The notes below the pieces were generated by a model. That model saw nothing but the letters and a program-made list of their open reading frames with translations. It was not told the origin of the DNA and searched no databases. Made by a program: the position numbers and the translations under genes. 15,874 bases of DNA from a virus (Duplodnaviria; Heunggongvirae; Uroviricota; Caudoviricetes): IMG/VR virus record IMGVR_UViG_2526164613_000013, one strand, 5' to 3'. This document shows, piece after piece, positions 10,472 to 10,960 of the stretch (within the stretch, counting starts at the first letter, position 1; every line of letters starts with the position of its first letter).

Positions 10472-10662
10472 GAATCCTCCCGGCCGGGATAATATTGTGA
10501 GTAAAATGAGGAGCGGGCTGAAGTCCGGAAGTTATAGGACAATGGCAGAAGAGAGACAACAGCCCGCAATACGAAAAAGGCCGCGCTATTGCGCAGAGTG
10601 ATTACTGTCGGATATTATTCGCCAGCTGAAATATTACTTCACGTTTTGTTGTTTATTCCTTG

Positions 10663-10693
10663 CCGCCCGCGTCTCCCTGCGCGGGCTTTTTTT
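10663..10693 (+). terminator. Intrinsic terminator oriented for the plus strand (stem gcccgcg / cgcgggc, then T7); a second GC hairpin follows at 10705-10724
   Basis: 7-bp all-GC stem with 8-nt loop followed by seven T; the adjacent hairpin agcccctc-cgga-gaggggct reads on the minus strand with a weak U-rich tail. Confidence 0.55.
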
Positions 10694-10920
10694 GTCCATA
10701 AGAAAGCCCCTCCGGAGAGGGGCTGGAGAGTGGCGCTATGTGCCATTGCATGGTGCCGGGTGCCTCCCGGTGAATTCAGTACCAGCACCTGAATCCGCGA
10801 TTATCCCATATACCTACTCGCTGATTGCCCCTCCGCACAGGGGGATTCACCATGCCAGTTTCTTTTAACAAACTCCCCGCAAACCAGACAACAGTCAACC
10901 GCCTGAATTGTGAGACATTT

Positions 10921-10946
10921 AAAAAAAAGGCCCGCAAAAGCGAGCC
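10921..10946 (-). terminator. Intrinsic terminator immediately downstream of the tRNA cluster (minus strand: stem ggctcgc / gcgggcc with one G-U pair, then U8)
   Basis: Plus strand shows aaaaaaaa-ggcccgc-aaaa-gcgagcc at 10921-10946, about 15 nt past the argO 3' end. Confidence 0.55.
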
Positions 10947-10960
10947 AGGGAAAATAAGTG

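Follow-up and report, generated by a model that had tools for sequence, protein, structure and literature searches.

Our results indicate that the interval between the tRNA cluster and the nanS-p-type esterase gene of this phage DNA is very likely a densely used non-coding module in the late region of a lambdoid Stx-type prophage, an assessment that we make as part of the explanation that best fits the locus as a whole. With the same high confidence we assign it to the small RNA dyad modules of the type found in prophage Sp4, in which a tRNA cassette closed by the terminator T1 is followed by a cargo junction, the small RNA EcOnc05, an Hfq-binding RNA on the opposite strand and a structured nanS-p leader. 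The original prediction had described the interval as an empty toxin site; its observation is partly confirmed and its interpretation partly supported. For the window, by which we mean the whole stretch of 15,874 nucleotides that was analysed, the result is mainly corrective, in that an apparent spacer proves to be a small RNA dyad already in the literature and the toxin site is narrowed down to a few bases. The features on which the argument draws are listed here in the order in which the late operon is read.

11221-11249, minus strand: promoter-like site of the tRNA cassette (TTGATT-17-TATTAT), with a predicted start about 4 nt before ileZ
10961-11210, minus strand: tRNA cluster, comprising a tRNA(CAT) of ileZ type, tRNA-Arg(TCG) argN and tRNA-Arg(TCT) argO (ARAGORN and Rfam tRNA)
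10921-10946, minus strand: T1, the intrinsic terminator of the tRNA cassette, a 7-bp GC stem plus U8 (stem 10946-10929; -13.8 kcal/mol, z -4.3)
10917-10925, no strand assigned: cargo (moron/stx) junction, located by the homology breaks against Sp5 and Sp10 and by junction-probe half-matches
10697-10911, minus strand: STnc100-family small RNA gene, EcOnc05 of Sakai Sp4 (Rfam match 10884-10694; predicted start)
10697-10724, minus strand: terminator of the STnc100 small RNA, the GC hairpin of the original prediction (stem 10724-10705, -18 kcal/mol; 3' helix of the Rfam model)
10665-10686 (stem) plus U7, plus strand: terminator of the antisense small RNA (-16.7 kcal/mol, z -4.3)
10624-10693, plus strand: predicted antisense small RNA of EcOnc08 type, ~70 nt, convergent with STnc100 (start and size predicted)
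10589-10618, plus strand: predicted antisense promoter (-35 TTGCGC at 10589-10594, 18-nt spacer, -10 TATTAT at 10613-10618)
10571-10596, minus strand: T3, a weak hairpin (10596-10581) plus U5 that overlaps the antisense -35 (-9.1 kcal/mol, z -1.8)
10528-10613, plus strand: upstream antisense transcript (EcOnc21 Hfq peak), part of a published ~271-nt species (Tree et al., Table S2)
10472-10570, minus strand: nanS-p leader, with long hairpin arms at 10566-10554 and 10526-10514 and a small hairpin (10489-10478) over the Shine-Dalgarno GGGAGG (10481-10476)
9152-10471, minus strand: nanS-p-type sialate O-acetylesterase gene, a 439-aa ORF (Pfam DUF1737 and SASA) that is frameshifted in the window

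The bounds that had been proposed for the interval, 10472-10960, are exact: ARAGORN ends tRNA-Arg(TCT) at 10961 and the esterase ORF opens with its ATG at 10471. The late operon occupies the minus strand, and all genes at the locus lie on that strand and are read from high to low coordinates. The interval had also been called empty on the ground that it holds no ORF. This stands for proteins, since no credible protein gene was found in 10472-10960, where every ORF of at least 50 aa begins with TTG and two such plus-strand ORFs, compared with Pfam, had no match; it does not stand for RNA, as the interval contains both an STnc100 gene and a small RNA gene on the plus strand. Two coding candidates were set aside. 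A 43-aa ATG ORF (10470-10601) is without a Shine-Dalgarno and sits in leader sequence that is not conserved across variants, and a RefSeq pseudo-CDS annotated in DEC5A over window positions 10740-10865 is probably spurious, being on the strand opposite to STnc100 and overlapping it.

The same arrangement is found in other prophages. Positions 11260-10380 are 99.8% identical over 881 nt to Sp4 of E. coli O157:H7 Sakai, the full-length window is ~99.7% identical to a prophage of O55:H7 DEC5A, and 1000 of 5426 complete E. coli genomes contain the 851-nt stretch 10400-11250 over at least 80% of its length. Sp4 shares the window's gene order (CAAX protease, AraC-type regulator, ileZ-argN-argO, interval, esterase), and in the identical DEC5A and Sp4 loci the same three tRNAs are annotated as Ile, Arg and Arg. 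Q had been placed next to the tRNAs, which proved incorrect: the adjoining ORF (11952-11239) encodes an AraC-type HTH protein by Pfam, and Q lies farther off (13922-13542), separated from this ORF by a CAAX protease gene (Pfam) and also, in the DEC5A annotation, by a TrmB-family pseudogene. The promoter-like site in front of ileZ fits the start site reported to drive the tRNAs of Sp5 (Sy et al. 2020, PMC7547250).

Hfq crosslinking and Northern analysis in Sakai assigned to Sp4 the peaks EcOnc05 (sense) and EcOnc08 and EcOnc21 (antisense) (Tree et al. 2014, PMC4104026). That study and a 2021 review describe convergent Hfq-binding small RNA dyads in at least eight Sakai prophages, both Stx phages included, and place the dyads at the "moron" site between the late promoter and the lysis genes, where Sp5 has stx2AB. 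As publications already cover the dyad, STnc100 and the moron site, the locus itself counts as known. To it we would add a ~70-nt AsxR-like antisense RNA, a precise cargo junction and a conserved hairpin in the nanS-p leader, each of which we infer from the comparisons set out below. Rfam scans and alignments gave the following layouts, read in operon orientation.

Sp4 (the arrangement of the window): tRNAs, STnc100, EcOnc08/21, nanS-p
Sp5 (Stx2): tRNAs, T1, stx2AB, STnc100 (EcOnc27), AsxR (convergent), hairpin, nanS-p
Sp9: tRNAs, STnc100, EcOnc03, nanS-p
Sp10: tRNAs, tciA/terB-like gene, STnc100, AgvB, nanS-p
Sp15 (Stx1): Q, stx1AB, STnc100, EcOnc42, nanS-p

The sense-strand member of the dyad is identified by Rfam model RF02076 (STnc100), which matches at 138 bits against a gathering score of 47 (E 6e-31) with model positions 1-206 all matched, and which fills 191 of the 489 nt of the interval. 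Across eight copies from different prophages, 7 of the 34 consensus pairs show two-sided compensatory change. A predicted -10 element (TTAAAT, 10922-10917) precedes the match, the same hexamer position reading TGTAAT in Sp5, and this -10-like hexamer followed by CACAATTCAG forms the start of a conserved block in Sp4, Sp5, Sp9, Sp15 and L045. Transcription would begin near 10911, a placement that follows from the conservation of this motif and from RNA sizes: it predicts ~215 nt here and ~239 nt from the equivalent position of Sp5, which fit the published bands of ~222 nt for EcOnc05 and ~235/247 nt for the Sp5 copy (Tree et al. 2014, PMC4104026, Table S2). The EcOnc05 Northern probe is an exact match to plus-strand 10792-10826 and so detects the minus-strand STnc100 RNA, and the EcOnc05 Hfq peak falls at 10823-10715 in window coordinates. 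By analogy with the 99.8% identical Sp4 copy, which belongs to another strain, the window's EcOnc05 copy is probably an expressed, Hfq-bound RNA. A 191-nt STnc100 copy of EDL933 has been verified by Northern blotting, and overexpression of the related copy EcOnc27/sRNA103 alters fimZ and espA transcript levels.

The three hairpins that had drawn attention to the interval are all present (-13.8, -16.7 and -18 kcal/mol), together with a fourth on the minus strand at 10596-10581 that had been missed; the interval alone contains five terminator-like sites, where shuffled sequence yields 0.6 +/- 0.8. A GC-rich stem with a U-run immediately behind it is present in T1, in the STnc100 terminator and in the plus-strand terminator, the run after the STnc100 stem being a weaker tail (UUUCUUAU). 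Compensatory changes are found in the STnc100 terminator helix in Sp5 and Sp9 and in the plus-strand stem in PhiR49_2, and T1 is kept directly 3' of argO in Sp5, immediately upstream of stx2A. These hairpins are the 3' ends of three transcription units, namely the tRNA cassette, the STnc100 small RNA and the antisense small RNA. They had been interpreted as convergent terminators that insulate the late operon. The STnc100 terminator and the plus-strand terminator do form a truly convergent pair, with ~20 nt between them, but T1 does not belong to such a pair: since the operon is on the minus strand, a terminator after argO on that strand is co-directional with it. As for insulation, the sense-strand terminators probably prevent transcripts of the constitutive tRNA and small RNA promoters from reaching nanS-p and the lysis genes before Q comes into play. 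Protection of the lysis genes would be a reasonable side effect of these terminators, whereas a dedicated insulator pair is not supported.

T3 was considered as a further dedicated terminator and rejected, its fold being weak (z -1.8) and its invariance limited to the arm that bears the -35. The arm containing TTGCGC is invariant and the other arm changes in PhiR5_2 without compensation, so the constraint on T3 probably reflects mainly the antisense promoter and not the hairpin.

That predicted promoter would belong to the second Hfq-binding RNA of the dyad. Its hexamers do not change among seven cassette variants whose identity elsewhere falls to as little as 76%, and its columns align one-to-one with the TTGCGC-N18-TAAAAT that precedes AsxR, AgvB and EcOnc03, which gives the window the AsxR/AgvB type of architecture, TTGCGC-N18 followed by a -10 hexamer, with a predicted start. 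The 5' ends of AsxR and AgvB have been mapped as primary (Tree et al. 2014, PMC4104026). Both start 6 nt past the -10 hexamer, and the same spacing in the window would put the start at A10624, so that the predicted RNA of ~70 nt nearly coincides with the EcOnc08 Hfq peak (10619-10691 in the window). An alternative start from an extended -10 (TGaAATATT, 10627-10635), yielding an RNA of 51-53 nt, was dropped in favour of TTGCGC-N18-TATTAT, a conserved element with homology to the mapped promoters of AsxR and AgvB. The predicted RNA also has the position of AsxR and AgvB: it runs against the late operon and towards STnc100, lies just beyond the 3' end of the latter and is upstream of nanS-p. Its 3' end is different. 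Where AsxR and AgvB have a ~42-nt module (AGUAUCUCAUGCnnUUGCCCGAACCCAnUCGGGC), the window has UUUAUUCCUUGCCGCCCGCGUCUCCCUGCGCGGGC, and the two have in common only the outer GCCCG/CGGGC pairs and UGC. The Rfam models of AsxR (RF02703) and AgvB (RF02702) gave no match in window positions 10300-11300 even at E up to 1, the same models scoring 88 bits in Sp5 and 96.5 bits in Sp10. We therefore reject membership of either Rfam family and treat the window RNA as a positional and promoter homologue.

A replaceable cassette occupies the segment that runs, in operon orientation, from the STnc100 terminator to the hairpin at 10596. The cassette is of EcOnc08 type in the window and in Sp15 and carries AsxR, EcOnc03 or AgvB elsewhere. 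Across cassette variants the 5' part is variable and the 3' part (UUUAUUCCUUGCC plus the terminator) is conserved. Cassettes of EcOnc08 type occur in 57 phage records, 29 of them Stx2a-converting, and Stx1-converting phages are too among the matches listed. In PhiR49_2 the cassette lies between the tRNAs and the holin gene, and nanS-p is absent. These data raise the possibility, to which we give somewhat less than an even chance, that a previously unrecognised primary RNA of ~70 nt (plus strand, 10624-10693) represents a fourth type of anti-sRNA cassette beside AsxR, AgvB and EcOnc03, with the same promoter and position, another Hfq module at the 3' end and a conserved seed made up of ACUUCACGU and a GU-rich run. 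This cassette would be exchanged as one block in the space from the STnc100 terminator to the nanS-p leader and would travel with Stx1 and many Stx2a phages. If this is true, the ~70-nt RNA might act as a mimic or competitor of the core small RNA Spot 42, 11 nt of which recur in the seed of the window RNA, rather than as a sponge for it. The exact 11-mer common to the window RNA and Spot 42 has a p of 0.006 for one small RNA and is not significant allowing for ~100 small RNAs, and its overlap with Spot 42 region III is only partial; we have set the similarity aside.

Downstream of the cassette in the operon, the hairpins of the nanS-p leader comprise 16 pairs, 4 of which show compensatory changes, and their G-U pairs fit the sense strand only. 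Structure conserved in this way points to control at the level of nanS-p translation. The leader has a perfect complement in the EcOnc21 transcript. On a different view of the plus strand, the only product would be a ~271-nt cis-antisense RNA that starts in or near the beginning of nanS-p and pairs perfectly with the leader, with no separate short AsxR-like RNA. EcOnc08 and EcOnc21 are both reported on the antisense strand with a band of ~271 nt (Tree et al. 2014, PMC4104026, Table S2), and this is the sole published band. The probe used for EcOnc08/21/42 is an exact match to minus-strand 10585-10619 and so detects plus-strand RNA; as it lies upstream of the predicted start at 10624, a 70-nt RNA would be invisible to it. 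The second Hfq peak, EcOnc21 at 10528-10613, and the full complementarity of the ~271-nt RNA to the conserved leader hairpin fit the long transcript as well. Yet a long RNA as the only product accounts poorly for an invariant TTGCGC-N18-TATTAT with the geometry of the mapped AsxR and AgvB promoters, for an EcOnc08 peak that almost equals the predicted 70-nt RNA, or for the retention of the cassette in PhiR49_2, which lacks nanS-p. Nor was a convincing promoter found for a ~271-nt antisense RNA, the best candidate (10465-10493) giving ~194 nt. On balance we regard a long RNA as the only product as rather unlikely. The ~271-nt band and the EcOnc21 peak do show, by analogy with Sp4, that a longer plus-strand transcript presumably also exists, and a short RNA of ~70 nt and a long one of ~271 nt could coexist.

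We give much less credence to the idea that the small RNA genes are decaying, functionless relics of a defective prophage, conserved by recent descent only. EcOnc08-type copies in 80 viral contigs are 97-100% identical, so that purifying selection cannot be shown within the window's own variant, and covariation in this cassette was taken from more distant variants instead. The adjoining nanS-p frame is broken in the window by a 22-bp tandem duplication (9199-9220), which is absent in DEC5A, and the literature reports no targets for EcOnc05 or EcOnc08/21/42. Decay is nevertheless difficult to reconcile with helices that keep pairing by compensatory change and promoter hexamers that stay invariant across diverged variants, with the published expression and Hfq binding of the identical Sp4 copies, and with the shift in fimZ and espA transcripts upon EcOnc27/sRNA103 overexpression.

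The original prediction was right to see a place where cargo could be gained or lost, since stx2AB in Sp5, the tciA/terB-like gene in Sp10 and other cargo all lie at the T1 junction. Homology to Sp5 runs from the tRNAs to window position 10920 and is back at 10917, with a 1332-bp stx2AB cassette in the gap. Homology to Sp10 stops at 10920, the same left point as in Sp5, and is back at 10873, the tciA/terB-like gene occupying the same left junction; further viral contigs have two small ORFs and tciA downstream of the same T1. Half-matches to a 96-nt junction probe end at 10923 or start at 10925, within the T-run of T1, and this probe finds the junction unoccupied in 937 of 5426 complete E. coli genomes. 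The spot of cargo gain and loss is within or just after the T-run of T1. The stx site, proposed to be the interval after the tRNAs, is located by these data, but at the T1 U-tract upstream of the STnc100 block and not across the whole interval.

Kinship with Stx phages was likewise borne out. The region is shared by 382 phage records, ~220 of which are named as Stx-converting, and late-region synteny extends over Q, the tRNA cluster, the cargo site, the STnc100 dyad, nanS-p, holin and endolysin (Pfam and alignments to Sp5 and Sp15). The alignment to Stx-prophage late regions that had been proposed as a check showed this synteny with both Sp5 and Sp15 and pinned the insertion point of Sp5 to 10920/10917. 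Searches of the window for Stx1 and Stx2 subunits gave no blastn match and tblastn noise only (E 0.3 or worse); the window lacks the stxA and stxB by which a Stx-converting phage is defined. The description of the locus as an stx-free relative of Stx phages holds. That the interval is nothing but a gene-free empty cargo site, with hairpins serving solely as convergent insulators that flank a landing pad, is the least probable reading by our estimate and highly improbable: it agrees with the terminator-like hairpins on both strands, with the insertion of cargo beside T1 and with a plausible shielding of the lysis genes by sense-strand terminators, but a full-length STnc100 match covers 191 of its 489 nt, every hairpin closes a defined RNA at its 3' end, and both this Rfam match and the Hfq crosslinking and Northern results in the literature contradict it. 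In Sp5 and Sp15, moreover, STnc100 and antisense RNAs follow stx, so their presence is not tied to an empty site.

How the dyad module probably works can be sketched as follows. The tRNA cassette would be transcribed from its own promoter and end at the intrinsic terminator T1, and directly past the U-tract of T1 lies the junction at which other phages carry stx2AB, tciA or other morons. The Hfq-binding STnc100-family RNA EcOnc05 would then run from the conserved -10-like element to its own terminator, and ~20 nt beyond that terminator the gene for the other Hfq-binding small RNA, which is read from the opposite strand, would end at its U7 terminator. The predicted promoter of this gene has the geometry of those of the anti-sRNAs AsxR and AgvB, which occupy the same position in other prophages. 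The structured nanS-p leader comes last. In the lysogen, the tRNAs and both small RNAs would be made constitutively, the latter acting in trans via Hfq, and three sense-strand terminators would keep transcription from those promoters out of nanS-p and the lysis genes; once the prophage is induced, polymerase modified by Q would pass all three.

The site matters since Shiga toxin genes sit there and the small RNAs that flank it enter pathogenic E. coli with those phages. The related STnc100 copy that lies downstream of stx2 has attracted attention of late: in O157:H7, variation in this STnc100/EcOnc27 region was reported to predict haemolytic uraemic syndrome more strongly than any other genomic feature (PMC12711010).

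Among the systems with which the window can be compared, EcOnc05 and EcOnc08/EcOnc21 of Sakai Sp4 constitute essentially the same locus, to which both published probes match exactly; the window differs in its frameshifted esterase. The AsxR/EcOnc27 dyad of Sp5, also present in 933W, resembles the window in its STnc100 family member, convergent antisense RNA, hairpin and nanS-p leader, in its antisense promoter geometry and in T1. Unlike the window, Sp5 has the 1332-bp stx2AB between T1 and STnc100, and its antisense RNA is the 53-nt AsxR with another 3' module. In Sp15, a 459-nt stretch of antisense cassette and nanS-p leader shows 90% identity to the window, the cassette, EcOnc42, differing by 1 base, in keeping with the description of EcOnc42 as an EcOnc08/21 homologue (Tree et al., PMC4104026); in contrast to the window, stx1AB is present and the upstream tRNA cluster is absent. 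The AgvB/EcOnc06 dyad of Sp10 and Sp17 has the window's dyad layout and antisense promoter geometry. However, the 5' end of AgvB is a CACAACA mimic of GcvB targets, where the window RNA has a GU-rich stretch and ACUUCACGU, and the Sp10 locus carries a tciA/terB-like moron at the cargo site, which the window does not. Finally, the PasD small RNAs of EPEC, which are related to STnc100, are reported to lie between Q and a sialate esterase gene, as does STnc100 in the window; the seed regions of PasD and STnc100 are reported to differ (Zhu, Shabalina and Storz 2026 preprint).

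Two intact extra genes (window 11239-13279, minus strand) separate Q (13922-13542) from the tRNAs, so that the late region has more than one cargo position; in the O55:H7 strain DEC5A, a TrmB-family pseudogene is annotated between their counterparts. A promoter-like site just before ileZ suggests that the tRNA cassette is its own transcription unit, ending at its intrinsic terminator, T1.

13279-12572, minus strand: CAAX/Rce1-like protease gene
11952-11239, minus strand: AraC-type HTH regulator gene
11221-11249, minus strand: promoter-like site TTGATT-17-TATTAT, predicted start ~4 nt before ileZ

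In the Sakai prophage Sp5, similar short words flank the stx2AB cassette on both sides (left TATATCTG, right GTAATCTG; Sp5 locus L002 3545-3560 and 4878-4890), and the left word TATCTGCG also lies after T1 in L053 and L061, two loci with unrelated cargo. Since the Sp5 copy of this left word is located where the stx2 -10 element could be, we speculate that the toxin genes may have co-opted a copy of the small RNA's promoter element.

An 11-mer in the predicted antisense RNA, UUACUUCACGU (window 10634-10644, plus strand), is identical to nucleotides 40-50 of Spot 42, a core small RNA; the match has a nominal p of 0.006 but is not significant once ~100 small RNAs are allowed for. Shorter words are also common to the two RNAs, and ACUUCACGU is kept in 6 of the 7 variants of the antisense cassette. 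Opposite STnc100 and its partner, public annotations show genes for hypothetical proteins, or pseudogenes, such as ECs_0817 and ECs_1960, which were probably called in error where small RNA genes lie.

L001 12386-12511 (= window 10740-10865), opposite the small RNAs: annotated gene or pseudogene
L003 1767-2165, opposite the small RNAs: annotated gene or pseudogene
L006 1372-1890, opposite the small RNAs: annotated gene or pseudogene

The esterase gene nanS-p is preceded by a structured leader and is frameshifted by a tandem duplication of 22 bp (window 9199-9220; CTGCTGCCGGCAGCCGGAGAGG, present twice) that DEC5A lacks. Because the leader hairpins show compensatory changes and contain G-U pairs compatible with the sense strand only, they may exert translational control over nanS-p.

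10472-10570, minus strand: nanS-p leader; its long hairpin, with arms at 10566-10554 and 10526-10514, is conserved
10489-10478, minus strand: small leader hairpin covering the Shine-Dalgarno sequence
10471-9152: DUF1737+SASA ORF, one part of split nanS-p
9306-8599: DUF6645 ORF, the other part

At the other end of the gene, EcOnc52, an Hfq peak of Sakai Sp4, maps to about 8554-8631 on the plus strand, antisense to the nanS-p 3' end; PasA, a small RNA of EPEC, has been reported on the same flank of the esterase gene. A 329-aa ORF (7107-8096, minus strand) lies between the genes for the holin and the lysozyme; its DUF1327 match is limited to the first 100 residues, and the DEC5A annotation at this position is a truncated YdfR-family pseudogene.
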